Shown here: piece by piece, positions 28,040 through 44,242 of the stretch
Layout: the number at the start of each line of letters is the position of its first letter
Numbering within the stretch: the stretch's first letter is position 1
DNA from: Planctomycetota bacterium
Lineage (GTDB): Bacteria; Planctomycetota; OFTM77
Assembly (NCBI GenBank): GCA_040219065.1
Contig: JAVJTD010000031.1
Span: 32,236 to 96,235 of the forward strand
DNA: 64,000 bases
Direction of reading: 5' to 3'
Made by a program: the position numbers and the translations under genes
Notes under the pieces: generated by a model
The model's input: the letters and a program-made list of their open reading frames with translations, nothing else
The model's database searches: none
Told to the model about the DNA's origin: nothing

Positions 28040-28864
28040 TCATTCCTTCAAACGAAAACAGGCCGTCTTGACCTCCGGGACGGTCTCGAAGGCCTCTCCC
28101 GCCGCCAGCGTCATCTCTGGTGCCCCCAGGAACAAGAACCCGTCCGGCCGGAGCCGGGGTCGAATGGCCTGCAGGACGTTCCTCTTGGTCTCCGGGCTGA
28201 AGTAGATGAGCACGTTGCGCAAGAAGATGAGATCGAAGGGCTCACCCCGCACCGGGAGATTCAACAGGTTCAAGGACCGGAACGTGACGAGCTCGGTGAC
28301 CTCCGGGTGCAGCGCCCAATCGTTGCCGTCCTTGACGAAATACTTCTGCAGGTACATCGACGGCAGACCACGCCCCACCTCGAGGCTGGAGAAGCGACCG
28401 CGACGAGCACGCTCGATGACCAGCTCCGAGATGTCGGTGGCCAGGATCGAGATGTCCCAGCTCGCAAGGTCATTGAACTTCTCGAGGATCGTCATCGCGA
28501 TGCTGAAGGGCTCTTGTCCCGTCGAGCAGGCCGCGCTCCAGATGCGGATCCTCTTGTCCTCCCGGCGCGACCTTCGCAGCATCGGGAGGATGACCTCGTT
28601 CAAGGCATCGAAGGGCGTTTGGTCGCGAAAGAACGACGTCTCGTGCGTCGCCATCGCATGAACGATGCGATCGGTGACCGGCGAGCTCGGCGTCGATTCG
28701 GCGGCACTCAGCAGCGCATGGGCCGAGTCTTGTCCCGAGGCTCTCGCCAGCTCCGAGAGTCGGAACTCGATCAGGTAGTTCTTCCCCTCGTCGAGCACGA
28801 TTCCCGAGCGCTTTCGAACCAGATCGCGAACGAACTGGTACTGTTGAGCGGACAAAGAGCTCAT
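28040..28864 (-). CDS. cheR: chemotaxis protein methyltransferase CheR (copy 1)
   Basis: CheR N-terminal helical domain plus SAM-MTase core (IWSAACSTGQEPFSIAM, LRNVLIYF). The start is set at MSSLSAQQ; upstream extensions in the ORF track are rejected. Confidence 0.85.
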   Translation of the reverse strand: MSSLSAQQYQFVRDLVRKRSGIVLDEGKNYLIEFRLSELARASGQDSAHALLSAAESTPSSPVTDRIVHAMATHETSFFRDQTPFDALNEVILPMLRRSRREDKRIRIWSAACSTGQEPFSIAMTILEKFNDLASWDISILATDISELVIERARRGRFSSLEVGRGLPSMYLQKYFVKDGNDWALHPEVTELVTFRSLNLLNLPVRGEPFDLIFLRNVLIYFSPETKRNVLQAIRPRLRPDGFLFLGAPEMTLAAGEAFETVPEVKTACFRLKE

Positions 28865-29967
28865 GTGACGGGTCTCGAGGTCGGGTCGATGCGGGGCGCG
28901 GGGCTCGCTCCTCGTCCGGCCTGCGCCGCCCGTGTGAGGCGCGGGGCAACCTGGCCGAGGGGCACGACGTCGTCGGCGAGGCCGGCTTGGGCAACGGCGC
29001 CTGGCATCCCCCACACGATCGAGGTCGCCCGGTCTTGCACGAGGACTCTCGCTCCGGCGGCCTTGAGCGTTTGCGCTCCGAGGAGACCATCCTGTCCCAT
29101 GCCCGTGAGCACGACGCCCAGGACACGGTTTCCGAACACCTCCACCGCCGACTGGAAGAGCACGTCGGCCGCCGGGCGGCAGGAGTTCACCGGCTCGGTG
29201 TCGGTGAGAGCCGTCTCGATCTGGATTCCTTGACGCCGCACCGTCAGGTGCCGTCCGCCGGGCGCGATCCAGATCTGGTTCGGTCCCAGCACCTCGCCGC
29301 CTTGGGACTCCCGCACCTCGAGCGGCGTCTGGGCATCGAGCCTCTGCGCCAGGAGTTGAGTAAAGGTCGGCGGCATGTGCTGCACGATCAGGATCGGGAT
29401 CGGCAGCGTGGCCGGGAATTGGGAGACGATGTCCGCCAGAGCGTTCGGGCCACCGGTGGACACGGCGACGACGATCGCGTCGACCTTCTGCGACGGTGCT
29501 GCCGCCGGGGAAGTCGCATTGAGCGTGGTAGCGGCAACCGCGAGGCCCACTGGACGCAGTCGTCCGCACAGCGCCTTGATCTTGGGAATCAGGTCTTGGC
29601 GGATGCGGTCCATCGCCGTGCTCACGCTGCCGACGTTGGCGGGTTTGGCGACGTAGTCGGAGGCACCGCGCGAGAGCGCCTCGAGCGTGGCAGCGGCACC
29701 GCGCTCGGTGCGCGTGCTGAACATGATCACGGGAAGCCGCGGCCATTTCTTGCGGATCTCGGAGACCGTCTCGAGACCGTCGAGCACCGGCATCTCGACA
29801 TCGAGGATCACGACGTCCGGCTGCACCTGCTCGATACGGGTCAAGCCGACTCTTCCGTTCGGTGCGGTTCCCGCGACCAACAGCTCTGGATCATCCGAGA
29901 GCACGTTGGTCAGCATGCGCCGCACGACGATCGCGTCATCGACGATGAGGACACGCAGCTTGTTCAT
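28861..29967 (-). CDS. cheB: CheB methylesterase (copy 2)
   Basis: Receiver domain (VLIVDDA...VILDVEMPVLDG) plus methylesterase with GMGQDG. Confidence 0.85.
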   Translation of the reverse strand: MNKLRVLIVDDAIVVRRMLTNVLSDDPELLVAGTAPNGRVGLTRIEQVQPDVVILDVEMPVLDGLETVSEIRKKWPRLPVIMFSTRTERGAAATLEALSRGASDYVAKPANVGSVSTAMDRIRQDLIPKIKALCGRLRPVGLAVAATTLNATSPAAAPSQKVDAIVVAVSTGGPNALADIVSQFPATLPIPILIVQHMPPTFTQLLAQRLDAQTPLEVRESQGGEVLGPNQIWIAPGGRHLTVRRQGIQIETALTDTEPVNSCRPAADVLFQSAVEVFGNRVLGVVLTGMGQDGLLGAQTLKAAGARVLVQDRATSIVWGMPGAVAQAGLADDVVPLGQVAPRLTRAAQAGRGASPAPRIDPTSRPVT

Positions 29968-30115
29968 GTCGGATCCTTGCCTGGCTGCACTCGATCTCGC
30001 GCCGCCGGCTGGGCGGTCGCCCCCAGAGACACTGGCGCCGAACCGCGAAGACGACTCGGCACCTGGACCAGCTCCTGGTCTCGAAGAGCCGGCCGGAGCA
30101 GAGCCCTTTTCGCGA

Positions 30116-30598
30116 TCACTTCAAGTAGAGCGAGATCCGACCATCGCTGTATCCGGGCACCGACACCCGGAAGTGGTCGTTGACCTCGGAATCGTCGCAG
30201 AAGTCGACGGTGCGCTCATCGGCCGGATTGCCCGGCGACAGCACCTTCGAGAGGCGGATGCGGGACGGGCCGTGGAACAGGTTCACGCACACGTTGAGCA
30301 CTTCGCTCACGTTCTCGAAGATGTTCTCGGGGATCTGCGAAGTGCGAATGCAGTCTTCCGCCACGCCCGGCGGGATGAGCGCCAGGGCGGCGCCCATGCT
30401 GCTGCTGAGCGGCAGATCGATGACGCAAACGGCCACCGTGTTCTCTTCCGCATCCTGATAGACGGCGACGGTCAGCGGCTGCGCGCAGTCGGGCTCGAGG
30501 GCCGAGCCGCCCGCGTTGACCGTGACCTCCTTGCCCAGGAGGCTGGTCAGCGTCTTACGGACGTCATCCTGATCCGGCAAGCTGTACGAGTCGGACAT
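30116..30598 (-). CDS. hypothetical 160-aa protein within the che operon (weak CheC/CheX-like E-x2-N signature)
   Basis: ENIFENVSEVLNVCVNLF resembles the CheC-family E..N motif. It is not a CheD or CheW match, so function is unassigned. Confidence 0.35.
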   Translation of the reverse strand: MSDSYSLPDQDDVRKTLTSLLGKEVTVNAGGSALEPDCAQPLTVAVYQDAEENTVAVCVIDLPLSSSMGAALALIPPGVAEDCIRTSQIPENIFENVSEVLNVCVNLFHGPSRIRLSKVLSPGNPADERTVDFCDDSEVNDHFRVSVPGYSDGRISLYLK

Positions 30599-30724
30599 GT
30601 TCTGTGTTGCTCCGTTCTCATTCCTGTGCCGAGCAGCCTGAGAGAGGCAGTCTCTGTCCCCCGTCTCGCGCGAGGGGGCGTTCGTCCAAGCTGATCCCTA
30701 CATCGGCCAAGCCAGAAGCCCGGC

Positions 30725-31579
30725 TCAAAGTGGAATCGTCTTCCGTCCTCCGGGAGGTGGCGTCGGCCCCGAGCGCTGGAAGTACCCGGCCTTTCCCAAT
30801 CCGCGCCGCTCGATGGTCGTGTCGAAGCCCTGCAAGCTCTCTCCGTTTCCCAGGAAGAGGGCTCCGTCGGGCCGCAGCACGCTCTCGACCTCGCTCACGA
30901 CTCGGCGCTTCGTATCGATGTCGAAGTAGATCAGCACATTGCGAATGAAGACGATGTCGAACGGTTCGAGCGGAGGAAGCTTCTGCACGAGGTTCATCTG
31001 TCGAAACTCCACCGCCTGGCGCAGGCTCGGCTCGATGCGGAAGCCCCGTCCATCCGGGTGGAAGTACTGTTCCACTTGTTTCTGAGTCAGCCCGCGATGG
31101 ACCTCGACCGCGGTGTACCAGCCTTCGCGCGCCCGCTCGAGGGCACGCTGCGACAGGTCGGTCGCCAGGACCTCGAGCTCCCATCCGAGTAGCTCGGGGC
31201 AGCTCTCGCGAATCGCGATCACCAGGCTGTAGGGCTCCTGTCCCGTCGAGCAGGCCGCGCTCCAGATCCGCAAGCGCCGACGATCCTGACGAGCGCGGAT
31301 CAGGGCGGGAAGCACTTCGTGAGTGAGGACCTGGAAAGGGAACACGTCGCGAAAGAAGAAGGTCTCGTTCGTCGTCATCGCGTCGACGACCCGGCTCTGC
31401 ATGGCGGCCCAGCCGGCATGCAGCCCGTCGAGGATCTCCTCGAGTGAGCGCCCCTCGTCTCGTGCCAAGCGCTCCAGGCGCATCTCGACGAGGTAACTCT
31501 TGTCGGTCGGCAGGAGGATCCCTGAATCCGACTCGACGAGGCGACGGATCACCTCGAAATCGCGTGGCTGGATCGGCAT
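30725..31579 (-). CDS. cheR: CheR methyltransferase (copy 2)
   Basis: IWSAACSTGQEPYSLVIA and IRNVLIYF motifs. The start is set at MPIQPRDFE. Confidence 0.85.
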   Translation of the reverse strand: MPIQPRDFEVIRRLVESDSGILLPTDKSYLVEMRLERLARDEGRSLEEILDGLHAGWAAMQSRVVDAMTTNETFFFRDVFPFQVLTHEVLPALIRARQDRRRLRIWSAACSTGQEPYSLVIAIRESCPELLGWELEVLATDLSQRALERAREGWYTAVEVHRGLTQKQVEQYFHPDGRGFRIEPSLRQAVEFRQMNLVQKLPPLEPFDIVFIRNVLIYFDIDTKRRVVSEVESVLRPDGALFLGNGESLQGFDTTIERRGLGKAGYFQRSGPTPPPGGRKTIPL

Positions 31580-31640
31580 GGTAGACTCCCCTCGGGCACG
31601 CATCCGGCTCGGACGCAGGCCCTCCCCAAGGACACCCGGC

Positions 31641-34217
31641 TCAGATTCGGAACTGATCGACCAGCATTTGCAGCTCGCCGGCGAGGCGTGACAGCTCGGA
31701 GGCGGCTGTCCGATTGGACTCGACTCCCGCGCTCGTGCTCTGCGCCACCCGCGCGACCGCCGTGACGTTCTGCGCGATCTCACCACTTCCGGAAGCCGCC
31801 TCGGAGATGTTGCGGCTGATCTCGTTGGTCGTGGCCGTCTGCTCCTCGACCGCGCTGGCGATCGTGTTGGAGATGTCGTTGATGCGATCGATGACCGAGC
31901 TGATCTCCTCGATCGCCTCGACGGCGCTCTTGGTATCGCCCTGGATCGTCTCGATCTTCTGGCTGATGTCCTCGGTCGCCTTGGCCGTCTCCTTGGCGAG
32001 CTCCTTGACCTCGTTCGCGACGACGGCGAACCCCTTGCCGGCTTCACCGGCGCGGGCGGCCTCGATCGTCGCGTTGAGGGCGAGCAGGTTGGTCTGCTCC
32101 GCGATCGAAGTGATCACCTTGATGACGTTGCCGATCTCGGTGCTGCTCTCGCCCAGCTTGGCCACGGTCATGTTGGTGGTCTGGGCGACGCGCACGGCGG
32201 CCGTCGCGACGCGAGCGGCCTCGTTCGAGTTCTCGGCGATCTCGCGGATGCTCGCCGACATCTCCTCGACACCGGTCGCCACCGACTGCACGTTGTGCGA
32301 CACCTGGCTCGCCGCGCCCGAGACGAGCTCGGCCTGGCTGCAGGTCTCGTTCGCGTTGTCGCCGATCTGAGCGCTCACCTGCTCGAGGGAGCTTCCCGCC
32401 GCCGCCAAGGCGCCCGAGTTCTGAGCGATGGAGCCCAGGCTGGCGCGCAGCCTTTGGAAGAAGCGTCCGAGCGCCGCCCCGATCTGACCGATCGCATCGT
32501 CGCCATCCATCGGCACGGTCTGGGTCAAGTCACCCGACTCGGCCGCATTGACGACATCGAGGATGCTGTCGACTCGTCGGTGCAACGCCTCGGCCGCTAT
32601 GCGCTCACGCTCGCTGGCCGTGCGCAGCTCTTCTTGGCGGCGCAGCTCGTCAGTGACCTCCTGCCAGATCAACATCCGGCCAAGGTCGCGACCCTCCCGG
32701 TCGGTGACCGTCGAACCGAAGACACGGAAGGCATCGTGGTCGAGCTGAATGACGGTGTCCAAGCTGTCGTCGCCGTCGCCCGCGACCCAGGCCTCGAGGC
32801 TTCCGGCGCGATGGCAGAAGTCGTCGAAGCTCGCCCGCCCCGACTGCAGCGCGCTCGCGGTGAACATCGATCCGTGAGCATCGGCGAGCTGACGGAGTGC
32901 CCGGTTCGAGAAGCGAATGCGTCCCGAGGAGTCGAGCAGCAGAGTCGGCGTCGGCGAGAACTGCACCATCGCCGAGACGCGCTCGACCTCTTGGCGCTGG
33001 CCGGCGAGCTCGGACCAGTCGACCCGCTCGGAGCCGAGGGCCGAGCGAATATCGGTGAGCGCCTCGTCCAGCGCGCTCGCCATCGAGCCGATCTCGTTCG
33101 AGCTCTTCTTCGAGAGGCGGCTGCTCAGGTCACCGCCCCGGAGGCGGTCGACGGCCTCGCGAATCTCGCGCACCGGCTGGGTGATTCCGTTCGAGACGAA
33201 TACACCGGCGCCGACGAGCAAGACGAGCAGGACAAGGCCCACCGTGGCGAGCGACGACCGCAGGGAAGAGATGGAGGCGAAGGCCTCCTCGGCGTCCTGC
33301 CGGACGAGGACCGACCAGCCGAGGCCATCGAAGTCGCCGAAGCCCTCGGAGTGGGCAAAGCCGACGATGTGCTGCGATCCTCCCGGTGCGTCCTCGAGCT
33401 TGAAGCCGGCCTTGCCCTGCACCGCGAGCTGGGCCGCTTCGATGCCGAGACGGGTCGGGTTCACGTCACCGAGGATCATCGCGGCATCGAGATCATCGAC
33501 GACGAAGCCCTCGCGATTCAGCACTTGAGTGTGCGCCGACCCGAATCCGTGCGAGGCGAGCTGCTTGCGGAAGTCGGCCGCGATGTCGCGCACGACAACC
33601 GCCTGTGAGGCGCAGGCGAGCCAGACGCGCGAGACGGCGCCACCGGGGGCGTAGACCGGAGCGGCGATCTGGACCACCAGGCCCCGACCACCCGTCGCTC
33701 GCGCGACCGCCTTGTCGGCGACCAGATCCGACATCCACCAGCCAGCGCTTCGCGGCAAGCGAAGCCCTTTCTCGAACCACTCTTGGCCTTGGACGCTCGT
33801 GCCGACCAAAGAGGCCGCATCGAGCGGACGGCCATCGTGGTCGAGCTCGCTGGTCGCGAGGACCTTGCCGTCGCGGTCGGCGACCAGCACGAGGTCATAG
33901 CTCGGATCGAGGAGCGACAGCTCTGCCGCGGCCGCGGACAGCTCCTGCGGAGTCTCCAGGCCGGTAGAATGGGCCGCCAAGGACTCGACGAGCCGGGCGC
34001 GGTCCCTGAGCCCGCGATCCATCAGATCGAGCATTGAGACCGCCAATCCCTCGAGGCGCTCGCCCGAGTCCTCGATCAGCGCCTCCCGGGCCCGGCCCAT
34101 GGAGAGCACGGCGACGACGACCGCCGGCACCATCCCCAGGACCAGGAACGAGAAGATCAGCCTCGAGCGCAAGCTCGTCAGGATCGACCCGGAAACACCT
34201 TCACTCGACTTGATCAT
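31641..34217 (-). CDS. methyl-accepting chemotaxis protein with a large periplasmic sensor, HAMP and additional cytoplasmic modules
   Basis: N-terminal TM, a roughly 300-aa extracytoplasmic region and a second TM. HAMP ([18 protein letters not shown]) and a canonical MCP signalling domain ([31 protein letters not shown]). Confidence 0.85.
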
Positions 34218-34309
34218 TGCCCTCGCGACCTTCCTCGCTACTTCGTTCCCGCACCCATGGGGGGCAACTCGTGAATCGTGTCTTCTTCTCTTCGTCCGAT
34301 GGACTGCTG

Positions 34310-34756
34310 TCACCCGAGAAACGAGCCGGCACCGCAGAGGATCGCCCGCTCGACATCGAGGATCAGGAGTAGTCGACCGTCGAGCTTGTAAGCTCCTCGG
34401 ATCAGGTCCCTCGCCTCGCCTTGCAGGGTCTCCGGCGGCCTCTCGAAGGCCTCCTCCTCGACCTCGAGCACGTCGCCGATCTCATCGACGAGAAAGCTCA
34501 CGGCGCTGTCGCCGGTTCGGATCACGACGTTCATCGGAAGCTGGCCTTGGGGGCGGGGCGACAGGCCGAGGCGTCTCCGAAGATCGATCGCGGTCACGAT
34601 CTGGCCCCGCAGGTTGATCAGCCCCTCGACGACCCCGGGTGCCAAGGGCACGTGAGTCATCTGCTGGTAGCGGATCACCTCCTGGACCTTCAGCACCTCG
34701 ACGCCAAAGAACAGGCCGTCGAGGCAGAACGTGCAGAACTGCTGGGCTTCGGTCAT
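34310..34756 (-). CDS. cheW: CheW coupling protein
   Basis: 148-aa single CheW-like domain ([21 protein letters not shown]). Confidence 0.85.
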
Positions 34757-34757
34757 C

Positions 34758-37205
34758 TCAGAGCTCCATTGGGGCGGTGTCGAGGAGGCCCGGATCGACG
34801 CAGCGAATCACCGTCTCGAGGTCGAGGATGTCGGTGACCGTCCCGTGGATCACGGCCGCGCCTCCCACTCCCGGTCGGCCCGATCGCTTCTCGATGCGGA
34901 TACGCTCGTCGACGATGTCATCGATCTGATCCACGATGAGCCCGATGCACTGCTCGTCGCGGGAGTACACGATGATCTGGACCACGTCCTGCTCGGCTTC
35001 GATCGGTGCGCCGTAGCCACCGCCCACGGCATGCGCCAATGAGATCAGAGGCATGATGCGGCCGCGATACTGCACGACGAGGCGATCGCCGCTGTTCTCG
35101 ACCCGCGAGGCGTCGAACTCCTCGAGCCGGTTGACCAGTCCGAGCGGGATCGCGAAGCGGCCTTGCTCTCCGACCGTGACCAGAAGCAACGTGTGGCGCT
35201 CGAGCGCCTCCTCCTCGGCCGGTGGCTTGGCGACGACCAAACGCTTGTCGCCGACCTCGGAGACGACCTTGCCTTGCTGAGCGACACCGAGCACATCGAG
35301 GATGAGCGAGACCGAGCCATCCCCGAGGATCGTCGCGCCTGCGAAGACCGGGATGTCCTTGAGCGTCTTGTCGAGCGGCTTGACGACGATCTCCTGCGTG
35401 TCATTGATCGTGTCGACGATCATGCCGAACTGCCGATCGTCCGCCCGCAAGACCACCATGTTGATGGAAGTCGACTCCTTATCTTCGGGCAGCCTGAGGA
35501 GCTGGTTCAGGTAGACGAGCGGCAAGAGCGTGCCGCGGAGCCGGTAGACCGGCGTGCCGTGAATGCGCTCGATCGCGGTGCGCGCTTGCTCGCCGTCGAG
35601 ACGAACGAGCTCGAGGAGACTCACCTGCGGGATCGCGAAGCGCTCGCCGCCACTGGTCACCATCAAGGCCGGGATGATGGCCAGGGTCAGTGGGATCTTG
35701 ATCTTGAGCGTCGTGCCGCGGCCCACCTCCGAAGAGATGTCGAGCGAGCCACCGATCTTCTCGATGTTCGTGCGGACGACGTCCATGCCGACGCCGCGCC
35801 CGGAGACCTTCGTCACCGCCTCGGCGGTCGAGAAGCCGGGACGGAAGATCAGGTGGATCAGCTCGCGATCGGTCATCGTGCTGGCCTGATCCGGAGTGAT
35901 CAGCCCCTTCGAGAGCCCCTTCTCCCGCATCTTCGCCGGATTGATGCCGCCGCCGTCGTCGACGATCTCGATGTTGACCTGGCCTCCCTCGTGGAAGGCG
36001 TTCAGGCGAAGCACGCCCTCGGCGGGCTTGCTGTTCTCGACCCTTACCTCGGGCTTCTCGATGCCGTGGTCCACCGAGTTCCGCACGATGTGCGTCAGGG
36101 GGTCCTTGATCGCCTCGATGATCGTTCGGTCGAGCTCGGTCTCCTTGCCCTCCATCTCGACGCGCACTTGCTTGCCGCACATCACCGCGAGGTCGCGGAC
36201 GACGCGCGGAAACTTGCCCCAGACATTGCCGATCGGCTGCATGCGCGTCTTCATCACGCCCTCTTGCAGCTCGGTGGTGATCAGGTTCAATCGCTGCGAC
36301 GTGGCGAGCAGCTCCGGCTCGCTGGTGTCGCTCGCGTACTGGAGGACCTGGTTGCGGGCGAGCACGAGCTCCCCGACCTGGTTCATGAGCTTGTCGAGCA
36401 ACCCGACGTCGACGCGGATGCTGGCCTCGGACATTCCCGGGCCGCCGGCCTTGGTCGGCTTGACGGGAGCGGGCTCTGCAGCGGCCGGCTTTACCGGCGG
36501 CGGTGGCGTCGGCGCATCGGGCACCGAAGCTTCTCTGGCGGGCGCACTCGAAGAGGTACCAGCGGTGGATGCCGCGGGCTTGTTCTGGTTGAACATCACC
36601 AAAGAGCTCGCCGGGCCGCCAGCCGTCGCGGCCGGCTCCGCTTGTGGCTTCGGCTTGTTCTGATGGAACATCACCAAGGAGCTCGAAGGCGCAGAGCTCG
36701 GGGCCGGCTCGTCGGTGGGGGTGACCTCGGCGACGGGCTCCGGCTCGGCCGCAGGAAGAGCGGACGCCGCGGGCTCGGGCGAAGCCTCCGCAGCAGGAAC
36801 GGGAGCAGCCGGTTGATCGGCGTTGAGACGCGTGAGCTCGGTGACGAGCTCGGCATACTCGGCGTCACCGTCGGTGCTGGTCTCCTCGATGTTGCCGAGC
36901 ATCTCTCGTACGGCATCGACCATGCCGAGCAGCGCGGTCGTGATCTCGGGAGTCAAGGTCAGCTCGCCGTCGCGCAGCTTGCTCAGCAAGTTCTCTCCGA
37001 CATGGGTCACCCGCTCGAGGTTCTCGAAGGCGAGGAAGCCGGCAGTTCCCTTGATCGTGTGGATCGTCCGGAAGACGGCCGCCAGCGTGTCCCGATGAGT
37101 CGGATCCTGCTCCAACGCGACGAAGTCGGCGTCGAGCTGATCGAGGTTCTCGTAGCTCTCGACCAGGAACTCCTTGAGGACATCATCCATGTCGCTCAGG
37201 CTCAT
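34758..37205 (-). CDS. cheA: CheA histidine kinase (Hpt, P/A-rich linker, dimerisation, HATPase, two C-terminal CheW-like domains)
   Basis: Hpt His in FRTIHTIKGTAGFL. HATPase G-boxes (DDGGGI, GRGVGMDVV). Two CheW-like P5 modules. Confidence 0.9.
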   Translation of the reverse strand: MSLSDMDDVLKEFLVESYENLDQLDADFVALEQDPTHRDTLAAVFRTIHTIKGTAGFLAFENLERVTHVGENLLSKLRDGELTLTPEITTALLGMVDAVREMLGNIEETSTDGDAEYAELVTELTRLNADQPAAPVPAAEASPEPAASALPAAEPEPVAEVTPTDEPAPSSAPSSSLVMFHQNKPKPQAEPAATAGGPASSLVMFNQNKPAASTAGTSSSAPAREASVPDAPTPPPPVKPAAAEPAPVKPTKAGGPGMSEASIRVDVGLLDKLMNQVGELVLARNQVLQYASDTSEPELLATSQRLNLITTELQEGVMKTRMQPIGNVWGKFPRVVRDLAVMCGKQVRVEMEGKETELDRTIIEAIKDPLTHIVRNSVDHGIEKPEVRVENSKPAEGVLRLNAFHEGGQVNIEIVDDGGGINPAKMREKGLSKGLITPDQASTMTDRELIHLIFRPGFSTAEAVTKVSGRGVGMDVVRTNIEKIGGSLDISSEVGRGTTLKIKIPLTLAIIPALMVTSGGERFAIPQVSLLELVRLDGEQARTAIERIHGTPVYRLRGTLLPLVYLNQLLRLPEDKESTSINMVVLRADDRQFGMIVDTINDTQEIVVKPLDKTLKDIPVFAGATILGDGSVSLILDVLGVAQQGKVVSEVGDKRLVVAKPPAEEEALERHTLLLVTVGEQGRFAIPLGLVNRLEEFDASRVENSGDRLVVQYRGRIMPLISLAHAVGGGYGAPIEAEQDVVQIIVYSRDEQCIGLIVDQIDDIVDERIRIEKRSGRPGVGGAAVIHGTVTDILDLETVIRCVDPGLLDTAPMEL

Positions 37206-37632: not shown

Positions 37633-37974
37633 ATGAACTGGATCGCATTCTGTCTGTTGTCCCTGCTGCCCCTGTCGGCGCCGACGCCTCGGCCGGTGGA
37701 CAATCAGCCCTGCATTCTGAAGCTGAACCTGACCACTGGCGCGTTCATGTGCTTCGATGCCGACTGCACGCCGTGCGACGAGCTCGAGGTGACGATGGAG
37801 GGCACGACGATCACACGCTGCTCGTGTAGCGGCGGCGGCTCCTACGACGGGACCTGCTGGGGCAAAGGTGAGACGGTCGCCGGACAGTCGACGCTCATCT
37901 GCATCGCAGGCACGAGCTGCAACGACTGTGACTTCGACGCGGATGGCACTTGGAAGTGGTGCATCTGCCAATGA
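37633..37974 (+). CDS. secreted Cys-rich mini-protein (113 aa, 13 Cys)
   Basis: Signal peptide MNWIAFCLLSLLPLSAPTP followed by a Cys-dense mature region (CSCSGGGSYDGTCWG...CNDCDFDADGTWKWCICQ). Confidence 0.45.
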   Translation: MNWIAFCLLSLLPLSAPTPRPVDNQPCILKLNLTTGAFMCFDADCTPCDELEVTMEGTTITRCSCSGGGSYDGTCWGKGETVAGQSTLICIAGTSCNDCDFDADGTWKWCICQ

Positions 37975-37999
37975 CTTTGGGAAGAAGGAGAGAGCAACG

Positions 38000-38653
38000 A
38001 TGACCAAGTTGATGATCGTGACGGCGGCAATGTTGGCCGCTCTCGGATCGAGTGGACCACTCTTCATCGAAGAAGAGCCGCCCGCTCCCGACCCTTCGGA
38101 GTTCGTCGAGTTTCGCTACGACGCCGACCCGAGCCTTGGCTTCCTCGGAGAGTGGCAAGGTGAGGACCTTCGCGAGGTGACTTCGGTCGAAGAGGAACCG
38201 GGACGAGTTCGGGTCCATTGGATTCAACTCGACCGAGCCCGATTCGTGGTCGACTCGGCGTTGGTCGGAGAGCGATTTCAGCGTGGACAGAGAGTCGAAG
38301 TCGACGTTCCCTCATCACTCCGTCTCGCGTTGACAGTGAATCCCGAGGGCGAGGTCGCGCCGAGGATCGACTACCGGGCGGAAGCGGACCTCGCGTCTCC
38401 GGAAGGTCATCCCGCCGCCCTCGGGACGCGGAAGTCGAGGCAGGTCGACGGGAGCACCCATCGAATCTCGAAGGCGGTCTACATCTCCGATCGGGAGAAG
38501 GTGGTCGGCTACCAAGCCTCGCCCGGCACCCTGACCATCGAGGAGAACGCCGTGCGCTTTGGGGTCGAGCTCGAGGTGACCGAGCCCTACGGCCTATTGA
38601 TGGCACGCCGGGCCAACGGTGACCTCTACTTCTGGCTCGTGCCTGGCAACTGA
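38000..38653 (+). CDS. secreted hypothetical protein (217 aa)
   Basis: GAAGGAG RBS upstream and signal peptide MTKLMIVTAAMLAALGSSG. No recognisable domain. Confidence 0.45.
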   Translation: MTKLMIVTAAMLAALGSSGPLFIEEEPPAPDPSEFVEFRYDADPSLGFLGEWQGEDLREVTSVEEEPGRVRVHWIQLDRARFVVDSALVGERFQRGQRVEVDVPSSLRLALTVNPEGEVAPRIDYRAEADLASPEGHPAALGTRKSRQVDGSTHRISKAVYISDREKVVGYQASPGTLTIEENAVRFGVELEVTEPYGLLMARRANGDLYFWLVPGN

Positions 38654-38737
38654 GCTTTCGCTTCCAGGGAAGAAGGAAAAGGGCCCGAGTGCCTCAGCAC
38701 TCGGGCCCTCGCTTTCCTGGTTCCGAGCCCGACCGAT

Positions 38738-41074
38738 TCAGAACGGCAGGCTGACCTCGATGTCGTCCGAGCCGACGCCGAGCGGTTGCTCTTGAACCTC
38801 TCCGTTCGATTCCCAACGAAGCAGGTACGAGCCCGCGGCGAGAGTCCGAGCGACCGTATGGAGCTTGTTCCTCGGAATGAACGGGACCGACGCACAGACG
38901 ACGTCGTCCGAAGATCGGACGATGAAGAGCCGGCCCGGCTCCGCGGAGACCGGGAGGTCTGCCACGAACTTCACCGTGTGGAACTGACTGGGGATCTCGA
39001 GATCGATCGCCGCTGGCAAGGGTCCCCCCTCGAGCTTGCCGACGGGCATGGCGAGGTGATCGGCTCCAGCCTCGGCCGGAGAAGGTGCCCAGTAAAGAGT
39101 CCCCAAGGCGTTCTGCTCGAGTGCCAGCTTACCTCCGGACTCCGCAACGATTCGCTGCGGGTTATTGCTCCGCTCGAAGTACACCGAGCCATCGGAGACA
39201 GGGATACCGGCCATGCGCTTGGTGATTGGAACCGAAAGCATCTGAGCCTGCAGCGAGATCGTCCCGAGATCCTGGCCCAAGGAGCTTTCCAAATTCAAGG
39301 CGCACGTGGTGACCTCGTATCCGGGAGCTCGGATCTCCAGCTTGCTCTCTCCGAGCGGGACATCGGACAGAGTGAAGAGACCGTTGCTGACGCCGAGGAG
39401 CTCGCTCACCTCTCGGCCCCGATTGCGGTCCCAGATCAGCTCAACCTCGGGTACCGTCGTGATCGGAGTATTGGATTCGGAGTCGATGAGCTCGAAGGTC
39501 ACCGGACCGAAGCCATCGGTGAGGTATTGAGTCGGAAGGACGAAGCTCAGCGTGGCCCCCGGCAACGAGCTCAGCGGCTGTGAGCGAACGATCCGGCTCT
39601 TGAACATCGCGAATAGCGTGATCGGCGGAAGCTGATGAAGCTCCAGCACCCGTCCGCCAGCCGTCGGTGAATACGTGTATCGACTGGAATCGCCGACGAT
39701 GAGGCTCTCCGCAGAGGATTCCATCGAGGAGCGCCAAGTCCCGGGCTGCGGCTCCGCCGGCGAGGCGAGGAAGCCGATGCTCGCGATGTGGTCCCGGAGA
39801 TACGGACTCGCTCCGATCTGGTCCAGGTAGCTGGTCCAGAGCTGACCGGACTCGGTCACGAGCTGCACCGAGAATGAATGGATCGCATCGAATCGGATTC
39901 GAATTCGGCCGGGATCCGCGGGATCCGAAACGGTCCACTGGACGCTCGATTGCAGGTAACCAGCGCTCGTCTCGAGCGTCCCCGTGGTACCCACGACATT
40001 CTCGAAGACCACGACGCCGGACTTGTCGGTCACACCCGACATCGATTCCCCTTCCGGCGACTCGAGCTGAACCTGCAGTCCCGCCACCCGGCGCCGAGTA
40101 TTCGCCCGATCGACCAAGATGAACTCCAGGCGCATCGGATCATGACTCGCAGCCATGGTGCCACCGCCCGGAAGATCGCTACGACCCGGCACCGAGGCGG
40201 CATCCGTGGAGGAGACGGAGGGAGCGCTCGGCTCGGGCACCAGTGTCGCGCTCGAGAAGGGCCCAGAGCTCGTCACGTCGGGCTCGGGGGCTAGAGTATC
40301 GCGAGAGGAGCCACTTCCGAGCTCAATGGGCTCGCCCGGCTGTTCGAGGACCTTCGAACTGATCGCGACGATCGAAACGATGCCCAAGACGCTCGCCGCG
40401 ACCCAGCCCACGATCTTCGGGATCGAAGTCGAGGTCGAGCTGGCGACGCCCAGCCCTTTGGAGATCCTTCGGATCGCGACCAGATCGCCCGGCGCGAGCA
40501 GCGGCACCAGGGCCGACAACCAGACCTGCCGGTCTCCATTCGATCGATCGTCCAACCGCCGACGGAATTCCTTGAGTCCTCGATCGAGCCGAGACTTGAT
40601 CGCCTCTCGGCCGACTCCCTCCCGATTCGCGATCTCTTGGAGCGAGAGTCCTTCGAAGAAGCGGGCGACCAAGGTCCGCTGATAGATCTCCCCCATGGCG
40701 TCGAGCTGATCGAGCAGCAACCGATGCGTCTCGAGCTGCTCCTGCGCCGAGACGACTCGATCCTCCTCTTCGGACCTCTCGGCCACCAACAGGAATTGGG
40801 ACCGATGCTTCTTGGCACGCATCTGGTCCCGAAGGTGTCTCAAGAAGACTCGATACAGCACCTTGCGCAACCAGGCCCGCAACTGACTCTGGTTCTCGAT
40901 CGATGGCGGCGACTTCAGTGCCCGCAGGTACGTGTCTTGAAGGATCTCCTCAGCACTTTCCACGTCCCCCACGAGATGGATCGCGAATCGACGCAGGGCC
41001 TCCTGATGATCCTCGAGCATTTGGGCTTCGAAGCCGACTGCTCTGGCCAGCCCGGCCTTTCGACTGTGCACCAT
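38738..41074 (-). CDS. ECF sigma-70 factor fused to a TM segment and a roughly 500-aa extracytoplasmic domain (sigma/anti-sigma-like fusion)
   Basis: The N-terminal roughly 190 aa carry sigma-70 region 2 (AEEILQDTYLRAL) and region 4 (LSLQEIANREGVGREAIKSRLDRG). A single TM (IVGWVAASVLGIVSIVAI) is followed by a large beta-rich C-terminal domain. Confidence 0.6.
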   Translation of the reverse strand: MVHSRKAGLARAVGFEAQMLEDHQEALRRFAIHLVGDVESAEEILQDTYLRALKSPPSIENQSQLRAWLRKVLYRVFLRHLRDQMRAKKHRSQFLLVAERSEEEDRVVSAQEQLETHRLLLDQLDAMGEIYQRTLVARFFEGLSLQEIANREGVGREAIKSRLDRGLKEFRRRLDDRSNGDRQVWLSALVPLLAPGDLVAIRRISKGLGVASSTSTSIPKIVGWVAASVLGIVSIVAISSKVLEQPGEPIELGSGSSRDTLAPEPDVTSSGPFSSATLVPEPSAPSVSSTDAASVPGRSDLPGGGTMAASHDPMRLEFILVDRANTRRRVAGLQVQLESPEGESMSGVTDKSGVVVFENVVGTTGTLETSAGYLQSSVQWTVSDPADPGRIRIRFDAIHSFSVQLVTESGQLWTSYLDQIGASPYLRDHIASIGFLASPAEPQPGTWRSSMESSAESLIVGDSSRYTYSPTAGGRVLELHQLPPITLFAMFKSRIVRSQPLSSLPGATLSFVLPTQYLTDGFGPVTFELIDSESNTPITTVPEVELIWDRNRGREVSELLGVSNGLFTLSDVPLGESKLEIRAPGYEVTTCALNLESSLGQDLGTISLQAQMLSVPITKRMAGIPVSDGSVYFERSNNPQRIVAESGGKLALEQNALGTLYWAPSPAEAGADHLAMPVGKLEGGPLPAAIDLEIPSQFHTVKFVADLPVSAEPGRLFIVRSSDDVVCASVPFIPRNKLHTVARTLAAGSYLLRWESNGEVQEQPLGVGSDDIEVSLPF

Positions 41075-41300
41075 GTGTCTCCTCCTCCTCGATGGACAGG
41101 AGCCAACGACTCTCCAACTTCCCCCTCTCGGTGAAGCTCTCCCATACTCCCTGGAATCCCGATGGCGAGGAAACGGGGGCAGAGAATCGAGCGGGGGCGA
41201 TCGTCCCGTCTCTGAAGTCTACTCAAAGGCCCGGACCGAGGAGCTCCCTTTTCCCTCCACCCGCGGTCGCACGGGCGCCGAAGAGAGAAAAACTTCTCTC

Positions 41301-41786
41301 ATGAGAAAATTTTCTCTCGCGCTCTCGCCCGTTCCCACGTCTCATCGAGCGACGGAAGCGAATGGACCGAGACCACAGGAGCCTCTCGTGACCGATCCTC
41401 AAAACCTCAGTCGCCGCGAGCGACAGATCATGGACATCGTCTACGAGCTCGGCCAGGCGACCTCCGCCGAGATCCTCGAGCGCCTCCCCGATCCCCCCAG
41501 CGCCGCTTCCGTCCGGACGCTGCTCCGCATCCTCGAAGAGCGCGGGCACCTCCGCCACACCCCGGACGGACCGCGCTACGTCTATCACCCCACCGTCCCG
41601 CGCAACCGCGCCAGCCGCTCCGCGCTGCGCCACGTCTTGCGGACATTCTTCGAGAATCGCGTCACGGGCGTCGTCGAGACCCTCCTCGACATCGAGGGCA
41701 AGAACCTCTCTCAAGAGGAGGTCGCCCGGCTCGCCGAGCTCATCGAGCACATCCAGGAGACCGAGGAGCAGGAGGACGATCGATGA
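41301..41786 (+). CDS. BlaI/MecI/CopY-family transcriptional repressor
   Basis: Winged-helix LSRRERQIMDIVYELGQATSAEILERL...SVRTLLRILEERGHL. The start is uncertain, with an alternative GTG at 41388. Its stop overlaps the downstream BlaR1-like gene. Confidence 0.7.
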   Translation: MRKFSLALSPVPTSHRATEANGPRPQEPLVTDPQNLSRRERQIMDIVYELGQATSAEILERLPDPPSAASVRTLLRILEERGHLRHTPDGPRYVYHPTVPRNRASRSALRHVLRTFFENRVTGVVETLLDIEGKNLSQEEVARLAELIEHIQETEEQEDDR

Positions 41787-44242
41787 CCTTCGATGGCGCC
41801 CTTGCTTGGACACCGCTCGTTCTTGCCCTGAAGGTCAGCCTCCTCGTCTCGGTCCTGTGGCTCCTTCACCCTTGGCTTCGCCGCAGCACCGCCCGCACCC
41901 GCGCCCTCGCGACCACGGCCACCCTCGCCGGTGCCCTCCTCGTCCCCATGACCGGTTGGCTGCCTCGCTGGGAGCTCCCCCTCGTCACGCTCGAGAGCCC
42001 GGCTCCTGACCCGCTCCCCATCGCGATACTTCCTGAGGAGGTCTTCACGGAGGGCGCCATCGAGCCGATCGGGCCACAGGTCGCGCCGCAAGTCTCGTCA
42101 GAAGGCCCTGCCTCGAGCCTCTCACTCGGCGTCGGCCTCGAGACCATCTGGTGGCTCGGCTCCAGCCTCTCACTCCTGCTCATCGCTTCGGGGCTGCTGC
42201 TCGCGACGCGTTGGAAACACCGAGCGACTCCGGTCCGCTGCCCGCTCTGGCTCGCGGACCTCGAGCGGCTGCGCCTCCGGCTGGGAGTCCGCCGGGCGGT
42301 CGACCTGCGGTCCGGCACTCACGTTCCCGGACCGCTCACGTTCGGTCACCTCCGCCCGACGATCCTCGTTCCGACTGACCATCACGAGTGGTCGCCCGAG
42401 CGCCGGGAGATCGTCCTCCTCCACGAGCTCGCTCACGTGCGTCACGGTGACTGGCTCGCCCAGCTCATCGCCCGCGCCGCCCGCGCTCTCTACTGGTTCC
42501 ACCCGCTCGTCCGACGTGCCGCTGCGCAGTGGCAAGTCGATCGCGAGCTCGCCTGCGACGCCGCCGTCGTCGCCGCCGGCATCCGACCCTCGCGCTACGC
42601 CTCCGAGCTCCTCGCGTTGGCTCAAATCGAGCCGCCGCGAGCGAACGCCCGAACACTGGGCCTGTGGATGGCCCATCCTCGAAAGCTGGAAGGAAGAATC
42701 ATGGCACTCCGACACGCAGTCGGTGCACCGCGCCGCTCGCGAGCGCTCTACTGGCTCGCCTTCACGGGTCTCTTCGCCATCGGCATCGGAACGCTCCAGC
42801 CGTGGGCGGCCGCCCAGGACGATGACCACCGCGTCGTCTGGGAAAGCGCCTCCGGTGAGCAGGTCGTCCTGGATACCTCGGACGGGAACACCGTCATCTT
42901 GATCCGCCGTGACGGGGAGGACCTGCGGCGCATCGAGCTGAAGGGAGACCCTGCCGAGATCGAAGGGGACGCGAGATACGCCATGCGCACTCGCAAGAGT
43001 GACGACGGGCACACCGTCCACGAATGGATCGTCCCCGAAGCCGACGACGGCCGAGCCGTCCGAGAGTGGCTCGTTCCCGACTCCGAGGACGGTCAGACGG
43101 TCTGGCGTTTGGCGAGGCCAAGAGCCGTTGGCGAGCAGGATCGATTCCCGTCCTCCGGCGAGGTGCAAATCGATGGAGAGACCATGCGCTACCGGAGTCG
43201 CCCGACTGAGTGGCCCTCGGGGCAAGTTCGCTCCGACCAAGAGGTCATCGAGTATCGCTCGGTTCCCCGGCCTTCGAGCCCCGACGGGTCCAACGACGTC
43301 TACTGGTACGACGACCAGTGGCGGACGATGCAAGACTCCGAGCGATACGAGGTGATCATCGAGAGCTCTGGTGAGTCGGGCCGGACCCGTCGCTACGTCG
43401 TCGACGAGAAGGGGCGCCCCGTACCCGCGCCGAAAGCCGCCCCCCGCGCTCGCCGCGCCATTCGCGACTCCGACGGGCCCTCCTCGAATGAGCCACAGCC
43501 GCGGAGCCGCGTGCGCTTCCAGGATCGCGATGAGGCCTGGCGGCCCCGTTTGCGAACGGATCTCTGGGAAGAGGCCCCGCAACCCAACCCCCAAGAGTCT
43601 CCGCGCATCGAGCGAGCCCCGCGGATAAACAGAGCTCCGCGTGTCGAAAGGGCCCCGCGTATCGAGCGTGCCCCGCGGATAAATAGAGCGCCTCGCATCG
43701 AGCGAGCCCCGCGTGTCGAGCGTGCCCCGCAGATCAATAGAGCGCCTCGCATCGAGCGAGCCCCGCGTCGTGCCCCGTCTCGCGAGGCCGTTCGGTCGTC
43801 GCAGCAGGACATGGGCATCAATAGGCGTCAGCCGAGCGCGATCCGTCGACCGGCGATCATTCCGGACACCGAGCCCGAGCCACGCGCTCTGCGCCTTCCA
43901 TCTTCTGCTCCTCGCGCCCGCTCAATCTACCGCACCCAGCCTCCGCAGCCATCACCCTCGCCTCGCCCGCAAGTCTACTTCCGTAGTCCGGCACCCTCGA
44001 TTGACACGGCTCCTGCGCCACCTCGCGTCATGCGCTTTCAAGCGCCGCCGGTCGAGACGCCCTCGGCGCCTCGGAGCCGCTACTTCCGCAACTCGGAGAC
44101 GCTTCCCGAGCCGGCTCCGGTCCAGCCCCGCGCATTGCGCCGCGGTGTGCCGGGCGCTCCTGAGCGCATTCGCGAGGATCGCCCCGAGCCGACTCCAGTA
44201 AAGCCGAAGGGCAAGATCGTTCGCGCCAACACGATGCGCTGA
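41783..44242 (+). CDS. BlaR1/MecR1-like M56 peptidase-domain membrane sensor with a long repetitive C-terminal region
   Basis: HEXXH in LLHELAHVRHGDW within a polytopic N-terminal region. The C-terminal half is low-complexity, with about 10 tandem RAPR(I/V)(E/N) hexapeptides. Confidence 0.7.
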   Translation: MTFDGALAWTPLVLALKVSLLVSVLWLLHPWLRRSTARTRALATTATLAGALLVPMTGWLPRWELPLVTLESPAPDPLPIAILPEEVFTEGAIEPIGPQVAPQVSSEGPASSLSLGVGLETIWWLGSSLSLLLIASGLLLATRWKHRATPVRCPLWLADLERLRLRLGVRRAVDLRSGTHVPGPLTFGHLRPTILVPTDHHEWSPERREIVLLHELAHVRHGDWLAQLIARAARALYWFHPLVRRAAAQWQVDRELACDAAVVAAGIRPSRYASELLALAQIEPPRANARTLGLWMAHPRKLEGRIMALRHAVGAPRRSRALYWLAFTGLFAIGIGTLQPWAAAQDDDHRVVWESASGEQVVLDTSDGNTVILIRRDGEDLRRIELKGDPAEIEGDARYAMRTRKSDDGHTVHEWIVPEADDGRAVREWLVPDSEDGQTVWRLARPRAVGEQDRFPSSGEVQIDGETMRYRSRPTEWPSGQVRSDQEVIEYRSVPRPSSPDGSNDVYWYDDQWRTMQDSERYEVIIESSGESGRTRRYVVDEKGRPVPAPKAAPRARRAIRDSDGPSSNEPQPRSRVRFQDRDEAWRPRLRTDLWEEAPQPNPQESPRIERAPRINRAPRVERAPRIERAPRINRAPRIERAPRVERAPQINRAPRIERAPRRAPSREAVRSSQQDMGINRRQPSAIRRPAIIPDTEPEPRALRLPSSAPRARSIYRTQPPQPSPSPRPQVYFRSPAPSIDTAPAPPRVMRFQAPPVETPSAPRSRYFRNSETLPEPAPVQPRALRRGVPGAPERIREDRPEPTPVKPKGKIVRANTMR
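43601..43785 (+). repeat. tandem 18-bp in-frame repeats encoding (E/N)RAPR(I/V) units
   Basis: ATCGAGCGAGCCCCGCGG-like units are reiterated about 10 times in the nucleotide sequence. Confidence 0.75.

Follow-up and report, generated by a model that had tools for sequence, protein, structure and literature searches.

ECF sigma factors that carry a fused regulatory extension count as the one-component systems of the sigma world, and to our knowledge IutY of Pseudomonas putida is the only membrane-spanning sigma fusion to have been studied experimentally. Planctomycetota possess large and almost entirely uncharacterised ECF repertoires. Prc and RseP carry out the release of IutY, a sigma/anti-sigma hybrid of group ECF243 (PMC8999054, PMC10202637). 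The actinobacterial groups ECF48, ECF52 and ECF53 are predicted to be activated by proteolysis (PMC8999054), and in their extension one or two transmembrane (TM) helices are combined with a proline-rich stretch outside the cytoplasm and an outer domain that is beta-rich and of carbohydrate-binding type (PMC8999054, PMC5826349). Planctomycetal ECFs show diverse, unrelated C-terminal extensions (PMC7671368), and the planctomycetal group ECF57 (formerly ECF01-Gob) combines very long C-terminal extensions with the lack of an anti-sigma gene and about five copies per genome (PMC7826278), its hallmarks being WD40-like repeats and two conserved Cys that link sigma 2 and sigma 4 (PMC8999054). In pro-sigma K, an intramembrane protease acts on the sigma factor itself (PMC10202637). 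ECFs with membrane-spanning C-terminal extensions are an already described class, and the idea of such a protein is not new (PMC7671368, PMC7826278).

Here we analyze a fusion of this kind encoded in a 64,000-nucleotide stretch of planctomycetal DNA (the window). Like IutY, the window protein is one polypeptide in which an N-terminal ECF sigma is followed by a lone membrane span and a C-terminal domain located in the periplasm, with no separate anti-sigma gene; span and location are predictions in our case. IutY contains a fused FecR-type anti-sigma domain and works with a TonB-dependent siderophore receptor, whereas the window protein has no FecR match in Pfam or NCBIfam, no receptor gene nearby and an ectodomain of transthyretin-like sandwiches. 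It resembles ECF48/52/53 proteins, such as SCO4117 of Streptomyces coelicolor, in joining an ECF sigma to a long C-terminal extension, but it comes from a different phylum and its outer domain belongs to a different family. In those proteins, sigma 4 and the membrane are separated by an anti-sigma domain of the zinc-finger (ZAS) type; in the window protein, this interval is only 43 aa long, and aa 1-245 contain no Cys at all. With ECF57 it shares planctomycetal origin, a very long C-terminal extension and the lack of an anti-sigma gene (among the scanned neighbours), yet it has no WD40 match, its extension consisting instead of CarboxypepD_reg-like sandwiches, and it lacks the ECF57 Cys pair, whereas P0016, an ECF-plus-WD40 protein also retrieved by our profile search, has Cys in both sigma regions. 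As it stands, the window protein is a well-documented and unsurprising case of a known design; what is new in it is the lack of a recognisable anti-sigma domain together with the different ectodomain.

Gene and domain organization of the fusion protein

The fusion is encoded by a complete CDS with an ATG start (38738..41074, reverse strand), delimited by ORF calling, GC3 and a second assembly. Its 778-aa product is the same as P0001, which bears the NCBI annotation "sigma-70 family RNA polymerase sigma factor" in the MAG Planctomycetota bacterium. The Shine-Dalgarno-like sequence GAGGAGGAGGAG (41079..41090, reverse strand), located 5-16 nt 5′ of the ATG, constitutes a strong ribosome-binding site (RBS). 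Directly 3′ of the stop codon, a hairpin with a 14-bp stem (38679..38710, reverse strand) is a probable terminator common to the fusion gene and to the convergent gene at 38000-38653. Because the fusion gene has this terminator of its own, we consider it monocistronic and take a co-transcribed separate anti-sigma factor to be absent. GC3 in the fusion frame lies between 0.68 and 0.90 in every 50-codon window, the sigma/TM junction included, and drops to about 0.6 5′ of the ATG; since it is high in frame throughout the ORF, it bears no frameshift signature. The identical 778-aa ORF is present on a separately assembled Logan contig. We also considered a separate C-terminal product arising from an internal start, which is unsupported, as no start codon equipped with an RBS was found ahead of the TM helix. 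Neither paralogs nor internal repeats of the fusion were detected in the window with phmmer and BLAST.

Judging from its profile matches, the N-terminus is a complete ECF (group 4) sigma domain composed of regions 2 and 4 only. Region 2 (aa 20-86; 40817..41017, reverse strand) is matched by PF04542 (Sigma70_r2) with an E-value of 1.3e-11 and 44.6 bits (cut-off 24), in agreement with AlphaFold and Foldseek, and region 4, including its helix-turn-helix (aa 118-171; 40562..40723, reverse strand), is matched by PF04545 (31.3 bits) and PF08281 (29.6 bits), each above its cut-off. The NCBIfam model TIGR02937 (sigma70-ECF) covers aa 17-174 with 73.7 bits, well above its cut-off of 42.9. The two regions, which the first-pass annotation had correctly placed in the first 190 aa or so, together span aa 17-178 and are separated by only about 30 aa, and no Pfam match to region 1 or region 3 was obtained in the fusion protein. 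With both regions matched, AlphaFold pLDDT values of 75-84 and Foldseek matches to ECF sigma structures, the sigma domain looks intact. Its closest PDB sequence match is SigL of M. tuberculosis; the sigma part reaches no NCBIfam equivalog or subfamily cut-off, and the closest sigma-only relative, the sole find of a word-indexed search with this part, is an ECF of 29% identity.

Between sigma 4 and the membrane lies a cytoplasmic juxtamembrane segment of about 43 aa (aa 179-220; 40415..40540, reverse strand), which carries the motif R-x2-W-x2-A-L-x-P-L and in which AlphaFold models two short helices. Trp185 of this motif is kept in seven of eight relatives. The segment contains no Cys or His motif, aa 176-245 have no Pfam match even at an E-value of 10, and a juxtamembrane profile built from seven relatives retrieved no PDB chain at the same threshold. 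For the fusion protein as a whole, neither Pfam, NCBIfam nor PDB-profile comparison returned an anti-sigma domain, and no recognisable FecR-type or zinc-finger ZAS domain was found between sigma 4 and the membrane. At its length, the segment is also too short for a class I anti-sigma domain, which counts against the inhibition of the tethered form proposed below.

The segment is followed by a single predicted TM helix, IVGWVAASVLGIVSIVAISSKV (aa 221-242; 40349..40414, reverse strand), delineated from hydropathy, AlphaFold, relatives and flanking charges. The Kyte-Doolittle 19-residue mean peaks at 2.32 over aa 221-239; within the tether region (aa 183-262), a weaker peak of 1.54 is found at aa 183-201, and beyond this region no peak exceeds 1.18. 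AlphaFold places a helix at aa 219-242, and its flanks obey the positive-inside rule, with four K+R and no D+E before the helix and one K+R and four D+E after it. The height of the peak is matched by 4.7% of composition shuffles and is alone only marginally unusual; the presence of one such hydrophobic helix at the equivalent place in all eight relatives is the stronger argument for a TM segment. On these grounds, the single TM helix of the first-pass annotation is retained. The flanking charges and P0007, an ectodomain homolog with no sigma part whose N-terminal signal anchor directly precedes the same modules, support a topology with the sigma domain inside and the C-terminal domain outside, in line with the periplasmic location presumed for the latter.

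The extracytoplasmic part begins with a Ser/Thr/Pro-rich linker (aa 243-313; 40136..40348, reverse strand), predicted to be disordered from composition and AlphaFold; Ser, Pro and Thr make up 18.7%, 14.7% and 6.7% of aa 246-320. The following 465 aa or so (aa 314-778) are beta-rich in the model, as had been proposed for this half of the protein, and can be divided into four modules. D1 (aa 314-395; 39890..40135, reverse strand) is a transthyretin-like/CarboxypepD_reg-like beta-sandwich, and D2 (aa 396-520; 39515..39889, reverse strand) contains helices as well as strands, features the conserved motif LVT-x-SG and has no family match. D3 (aa 521-608; 39251..39514, reverse strand), delimited by a weak Pfam match and by the relatives, is a second CarboxypepD_reg-like sandwich; it is separated by a stretch modelled at low confidence and lacking a family match (aa 609-697; 38984..39250, reverse strand) from D4 (aa 698-778; 38741..38983, reverse strand), a C-terminal beta-sandwich conserved in P0003 and P0008. 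The CarboxypepD_reg family PF13620 scores 30.0 bits on the whole fusion protein against a cut-off of 32.3, and modules scanned alone yield E-values of 7e-4 for D1 and a weak 2.4e-3 for D3. Several aligned relatives clearly exceed the cut-off (P0008 with 58.9 bits, P0007 with 53.8 and P0011-P0015 with 98-182), and in P0008 and P0007 these scores are reached by the regions aligned to D3. The structure models are of low confidence overall (mean pLDDT 50 and 59), and the ectodomain displays in them the seven-stranded beta-sandwich of the transthyretin-like fold. At least two of the four beta-rich modules have a transthyretin-like fold of the CarboxypepD_reg type.

Relatives and genomic neighbourhood

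The positional ortholog of the fusion, P0003, lies at a syntenic locus of a second Planctomycetota MAG, where an intact 804-codon frame encodes the same order of parts at 27% identity. The same layout, with one hydrophobic helix 25-60 aa past sigma 4, recurs in P0008 and P0011-P0015. No fewer than eight proteins thus keep the complete architecture at an identity of only 19-28%, and the covalent sigma-TM-ectodomain arrangement described in the first-pass annotation extends from the positional ortholog to more distant relatives. Sequence comparison across this set indicates that the architecture is maintained by selection. One of its members, P0014, additionally carries a PDZ domain at its C-terminus; peptide-binding modules of this type are common where envelope signalling works by proteolysis.

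Within the ortholog pair, identity amounts to 33% in the sigma domain and 23-32% in the ectodomain, versus 57-86% for neighbouring genes, a divergence that relaxed constraint could also explain. Searches for additional orthologs found very little. A word-indexed search with the C-terminal part returned only the fusion protein itself, an exhaustive HMMER search over 1.84 billion representatives yielded one full-length relative, and two GTDB genome scans and two JGI metagenome scans recovered the OFTM77 MAG only. A literature search returned no relevant paper on the combination of an ECF with a carboxypeptidase regulatory domain.

Two secreted proteins are encoded next to the fusion gene on the forward strand. 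One is a convergent 217-aa protein of no known family (38000..38653), with 37% identity in the ortholog locus and no match in a PDB sequence search; the other is a 113-aa protein with 12 conserved Cys (37633..37974), with 34% identity in the ortholog locus and four PDB matches at E-values of 0.09-0.9, none of them significant. The first-pass annotation had suggested looking upstream of both for a cognate ECF promoter. Being convergent and on the opposite strand, they form no operon with the sigma gene, and nothing above chance was found upstream of either. When the upstream regions of the sigma and 113-aa genes were aligned to their counterparts in the ortholog locus, no promoter motif emerged, and no bipartite 5-mer/4-mer motif was common to all four regions under a shuffle control, pairwise motif counts being near the shuffle means (21 versus 20 and 23 versus 17). 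GGAAC...CGT-type patterns were not detected 5′ of seven family members, a sigma-70 consensus scan found no promoter, and none of the searches run returned an autoregulatory or target promoter motif for the sigma fusion.

No gene is common to the neighbourhoods of six relatives, and no conserved partner gene was found across the wider family. Pfam, NCBIfam and PDB sequence searches of the scanned neighbouring genes returned no anti-sigma match, and no site-2 protease gene occurs among the scanned ORFs of the window. The proposal that the fusion bypasses a separate anti-sigma factor thus holds for this locus, where none is co-transcribed or found among the scanned neighbours and the gene ends at its own terminator; it does not extend to the genome at large, elsewhere in which such a gene might reside.

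Proposed mechanism and competing explanations

By analogy with described systems, the window protein is most likely a membrane-tethered sigma factor with a signal-sensing outside domain that would be freed by regulated proteolysis. We hold with moderate confidence the full form of this explanation, in which a single-chain transmembrane signalling protein has its cytoplasmic ECF sigma tethered to a four-module ectodomain and released by proteolysis. The release by proteolysis or conformational change put forward in the first-pass annotation draws on IutY and ECF48/52/53 (PMC8999054), and the regulated-proteolysis model that applies to IutY may be extended by analogy to the window protein (PMC8999054, PMC10202637). 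According to this model, confinement at the cytoplasmic membrane would keep the tethered sigma from productive use by RNA polymerase, and the conserved Trp-containing juxtamembrane helices might aid inhibition if they fold back onto sigma 2 and sigma 4. Once a signal acts on the ectodomain, a first cut (site 1) would be made in the stalk or in the ectodomain itself, an RseP-type site-2 protease would then cut the Gly/Ala/Ser-rich helix within the membrane, and the soluble sigma factor thus freed would redirect RNA polymerase to its regulon. In this scheme, the ligand and proteases are inferred, and so are the release step and the promoters to be targeted. As proposed, it parallels the canonical RseA/RsiW-type systems of membrane anti-sigma factors and pro-sigma K, in which an extracytoplasmic signal leads to sigma release by site-1/site-2 proteolysis; in RseA/RsiW systems, however, sigma and inhibitor are separate, and in pro-sigma K a short pro-sequence is removed, whereas here the sigma is covalently joined to a transmembrane sensor.

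Cleavage is not a logical necessity, since membrane-tethered transcription factors of the ToxR type act without release. The sigma could be controlled while tethered, in a ToxR/CadC-like manner, if ligand binding or oligomerisation of the ectodomain shifted the juxtamembrane helices, unmasked sigma 2 and sigma 4 and allowed RNA polymerase to be recruited at the membrane with no proteolysis. The nearly invariant Trp and the two modelled helices between sigma 4 and the membrane speak for such a switch, as does the lack of a conserved protease partner in the vicinity of the family members; for some planctomycetal ECF57, moreover, it has been suggested that protein interaction, and not proteolysis, brings about activation (PMC8999054). 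Nevertheless, the one experimentally studied sigma/anti-sigma hybrid, IutY, requires cleavage (PMC8999054), and a tether of about 40 aa would restrict the access of a membrane-anchored holoenzyme to promoters. We deem control in the tethered state unlikely, while granting it more weight than the alternatives that follow.

The extension might instead be an evolutionary by-product with no sensory role, generated when a duplicated sigma 2/sigma 4 cassette inserted ahead of the gene of a membrane-anchored surface protein and captured it, a scenario proposed for Planctomycetes by Pinto and da Fonseca; the protein would then perhaps be decaying or constitutively processed. Planctomycetal ECFs often bear unrelated C-terminal extensions of multiple origins (PMC7671368), P0007 represents a free-standing, signal-anchored version of the ectodomain, and just ahead of the TM helix of P0014 (MKTKTK) and P0015 (MTKK) stands a Met with Lys/Thr after it that resembles a relic protein start. 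The orthologs, moreover, share only 27-33% identity within an otherwise well conserved block. Set against this are the persistence of the complete architecture in at least eight proteins at 19-28% identity, including the ortholog with its intact frame, the conserved juxtamembrane Trp motif and the strong in-frame GC3 across the whole gene. An origin by capture is in any case compatible with a present sensory function; an extension devoid of such a function seems rather improbable.

Control could also be mainly transcriptional. Divergent from the fusion gene, a 132-aa BlaI-like repressor (41388..41786, forward strand) is encoded in an operon with an 819-aa BlaR1-like M56 membrane metalloprotease (41783..44242, forward strand), and the divergent intergenic region contains two adjacent dyad-symmetric elements, GAGAGAA-N4-TTCTCTC and GAGAAAATTTTCTC (41283..41316), that constitute a candidate BlaI-like operator. 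Inactivation of the repressor on these dyads by the sensor protease would turn on both the sigma fusion and blaI-blaR. In both loci, the divergent blaR-blaI/sigma arrangement is kept and a 7-N4-7 dyad lies 73-105 nt 5′ of blaI, whose two arms differ between the loci in a compensatory manner (GAGAGAA/TTCTCTC versus GAGCGAA/TTCGCTC). The two genomes are, however, syntenic over a much wider region, so that linkage alone says little, and this neighbourhood is conserved in the ortholog locus only, BlaI/BlaR genes not adjoining six more distant family members. The distance between the dyads and the start codon of the sigma gene also exceeds 200 nt, and the dyads are equally well explained as an autoregulatory operator of blaI-blaR alone. 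We doubt strongly that the putative link of the BlaI-like gene to the sigma gene provides the main control; BlaI-type regulation could act in addition to post-translational control by the proposed release.

We attach similarly little credence to a broader proposition, whereby the fusion and its relatives would form a distinct ECF class that has no anti-sigma domain and in which the tether of about 40 aa with its Trp would serve as a minimal intramolecular inhibitor, here within a private, fast-diversifying cassette whose 12-Cys and 217-aa secreted neighbours would act as ligand, partner or regulon. The three genes of this putative cassette show 27-37% identity to the ortholog locus versus 57-86% for the flanking genes. 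If a short Trp tether does suffice to silence a sigma factor, it would embody a minimal coupling of an outside signal to transcription and could serve as a compact scaffold for synthetic sensors.

Finally, the long ORF might be an artefact, a sequencing or assembly frameshift by which a normal ECF sigma gene became fused to an anti-sigma or surface-protein gene lying downstream, as the first-pass annotation had cautioned, but we found nothing in favour of this reading and reject it as having next to no probability, given a single continuous frame with uniform GC3 across the sigma/TM junction and no RBS-equipped internal start before the TM helix, the same ORF in a second assembly, and the same fusion in the ortholog of another MAG and in six further proteins from unrelated samples.

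Reading frame and domain organisation

The 778-codon ORF on the minus strand (41074 to 38738, ATG start) encodes an apparently intact ECF sigma factor tethered covalently, via 43 residues and one predicted membrane helix, to a multi-module extracytoplasmic domain. Such a single-ORF fusion of a sigma factor to a transmembrane segment and a large outer domain had been proposed in the first-pass annotation, and the ORF, its GC3 profile, a second assembly and the relatives of the protein all agree with it. A frameshift joining two genes is rejected, as GC3, a sensitive frame indicator in this genome (~64% GC), remains at 0.68-0.90 in the fusion frame across all 50-codon windows, the transition from sigma domain to hydrophobic segment included (falling to ~0.6 upstream of the ATG), and the identical protein is also encoded on a separately assembled Logan contig. 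NCBI lists the same protein as 'MAG: sigma-70 family RNA polymerase sigma factor [Planctomycetota bacterium]'. A Shine-Dalgarno-like GAGGAGGAGGAG is located 5-16 nt upstream of the ATG on the minus strand and a hairpin with a 14-bp stem (38679-38710) directly follows the stop codon, so the gene looks like a self-contained transcription unit, ending where the convergent gene at 38000-38653 also ends.

The ECF sigma domain (aa 17-178) is identified by Pfam (Sigma70_r2, aa 20-86; Sigma70_r4/r4_2, aa 118-171), by TIGR02937 (73.7 bits against a cut-off of 42.9) and by AlphaFold and Foldseek, with both sigma regions modelled at pLDDT 75-84 and the modelled domain retrieving the ECF sigma structures SigL, SigW, SigH, SigE and AlgU. 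Among solved structures, M. tuberculosis SigL is its closest relative. It reaches none of the NCBIfam subfamily cut-offs and the nearest sigma-only protein among 5.8 billion sequences searched is 29% identical, which on sequence similarity marks the domain itself as an outlier.

A short cytoplasmic segment (aa 179-220), modelled by AlphaFold as two helices, leads to the only strongly hydrophobic stretch (aa 221-242), a predicted transmembrane helix by Kyte-Doolittle analysis and in the AlphaFold model. Its 19-residue mean is 2.32; outside the tether region (aa 183-262) no peak exceeds 1.18, and a weaker one of 1.54 lies inside it (aa 183-201). Peak height alone is equalled or exceeded in 4.7% of composition shuffles. 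The flanks fit the positive-inside rule, with four Lys/Arg and no acidic residues on the N-terminal side of the helix, and one basic residue and four acidic ones on its C-terminal side. A Ser-, Pro- and Thr-rich linker, disordered in the AlphaFold model, follows (aa 243-313). Residues 1-245 contain no cysteine.

Relatives of the fusion

Nine of 1.84 billion representative proteins matched aa 181-778 at E < 1e-3 in an exhaustive HMMER search; by this measure the ectodomain is rare. One of them, P0003 (804 aa, E 3.6e-17), aligns over its entire length and keeps the order of parts: sigma region 2, sigma region 4, motif, helix, linker and modules. P0008 (730 aa) is more distant and has the same architecture. 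In P0007 (428 aa), modules collinear with D1-D3 of the query (aa 314-608) stand behind an N-terminal signal anchor and there is no sigma domain; this arrangement supports an extracytoplasmic location of the ectodomain and hints that capture of a membrane-anchored protein's gene gave rise to the family. Five further relatives from a profile search (P0011-P0015, 829-1138 aa) each combine ECF sigma regions, a single hydrophobic helix lying 25-60 residues beyond sigma region 4, and between two and five clear CarboxypepD_reg domains; P0014 has a PDZ domain at its C terminus. Directly preceding the helix, the residues of P0014 and P0015 (LVMKTKTKVAIAAALLL, LVMTKKLLLGAAALA) resemble a protein start, possibly a remnant of where a captured membrane-protein gene once began.

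Aligned at the junction, the relatives share a near-invariant Trp, part of an R-x2-W-x2-A-L-x-P-L motif that lies a few residues beyond sigma region 4, and a Lys/Thr-rich stretch immediately before the helix. No anti-sigma domain was matched in the tether, either in Pfam at E 10 or with a tether profile against all PDB chains.

Proposed release of the sigma domain and alternative readings

The proteolytic or conformational release put forward in the first-pass annotation is a reasonable interpretation of the confirmed architecture, though supported only in part, with the mechanism drawn by analogy with IutY and ECF48/52/53. The tethered form would be inactive; a signal at the ectodomain would lead to site-1 and then site-2 (RseP-type) cleavage, which would free the sigma domain. 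Release by such cleavage has been demonstrated for IutY and proposed for ECF48/52/53 (PMC8999054; PMC10202637). The Gly/Ala/Ser-rich helices of the family and the PDZ domain of P0014 fit this model without proving it.

A membrane-tethered one-chain ECF design is not a new idea. The closest known designs, IutY (ECF243) and the actinobacterial ECF48/52/53, are alike in outline, but the present protein does not contain their defining feature, a recognisable FecR-type or zinc-finger anti-sigma domain. ECF57 is likewise planctomycetal, but its WD40-type extension and two conserved cysteines (PMC8999054) are absent here. Many ECFs with diverse C-terminal extensions are already known in Planctomycetes (PMC7671368, PMC7826278); no paper describing the sigma-TM-CarboxypepD_reg combination was found in a literature coverage that is incomplete.

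Alternatively, the conserved Trp-containing helices of the junction could control the sigma domain without any cleavage. The extension could also have been captured and be non-sensory, a scenario described in PMC7671368; the proteins that keep the architecture do so at only 19-28% identity, which argues for function rather than accident. A target promoter, which the first-pass annotation had suggested searching for as an ECF motif, did not emerge: neither alignment with the ortholog nor motif enumeration yielded anything beyond the shuffle control.

Genomic neighbourhood

P0003 derives from another Planctomycetota MAG (isolate OFTM77), and its locus (L007) is syntenic with the window. Divergent and upstream of the sigma fusion (27% identity between loci) lie genes for a BlaI-like repressor (76%) and a BlaR1-like M56 protease (40%); convergent and downstream are those for two secreted proteins of 217/227 aa (37%) and 113/111 aa (34%, with 12 conserved Cys), beyond which chemotaxis genes follow. 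Synteny reaches much further (FG-GAP/DUF7133 protein, 73-86%; aminotransferase, 64-73%; CheB, 57%), so shared ancestry largely explains the linkage, leaving it weak as evidence of a functional link. Neither the window neighbours nor any other gene recurs beside six more distant family members, and no anti-sigma gene was seen at their loci, the window locus or the P0003 locus; the family thus looks like a set of stand-alone, one-protein units.

Transcriptional control through the BlaI-like repressor is a further alternative to release by cleavage. Dyad-symmetric elements (GAGAGAA-N4-TTCTCTC and GAGAAAATTTTCTC; 41283-41316), 73-105 nt upstream of the BlaI-like gene, are a probable candidate operator in a region shared with the sigma gene. 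The 7-N4-7 dyad is equally distant from blaI in both loci, and its counterpart, GAGCGAA-N4-TTCGCTC (L007 7737-7754), carries compensatory changes in both arms.

Fastest to diverge in the syntenic block are the genes for the sigma fusion and both small secreted proteins (37633-41074), at 27-37% identity against 57-86% for its other genes in the two MAGs; that they form a fast-diversifying cassette, with the tether alone acting as a mini anti-sigma, has a low probability. The 113-aa protein (37633-37974, plus strand) carries a signal peptide, and its mature part contains 12 Cys, all 12 kept in the ortholog (L007 11167-11502) despite 34% identity, with no Pfam match and no significant PDB sequence match (best E 0.09). 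The 217-aa protein (38000-38653, plus strand) belongs to a family without assignment, and one JGI metagenome scan returned no relatives; its C-terminal block YGLLMARRxNGDLYFWLVP equals that of the ortholog except at one position (x = A/D), the remainder being ~35% identical.

The long C-terminal part of the BlaR1-like protease (CDS 41783-44242) includes (R-A-P-R-I/V-E/N)n, encoded by an 18-nt tandem repeat (9.3 copies, 43601-43768); alignment with the ortholog is confined to the N-terminal ~600 aa of the protease. A large chemotaxis region (25809-37205) comprises two CheB genes (25809-26900, 28861-29967), two CheR-like matches and, as read from translations only, an apparent MCP-CheW-CheA operon (31641-37205, minus strand). 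The OFTM77 MAG lacks the MCP-CheW-CheA segment seen in the window, its CheR and CheB genes coming immediately after the small Cys-rich one. Giant FG-GAP repeat proteins are encoded at 15481-18117 and 52134-56768 (both minus strand), the latter also carrying DUF7133 and HEAT repeats and being 73-86% identical to its L007 ortholog. A 1457-aa ORF (58628-63001, minus strand) is coding-like in its GC3 (0.73) and matches nothing in Pfam at E 1e-5, and a 440-aa protein (57256-58578, plus strand) combines a MAP3K TRAFs-binding domain (E 1e-43) with a TPR-S (TPR sensor) domain (E 3e-29).
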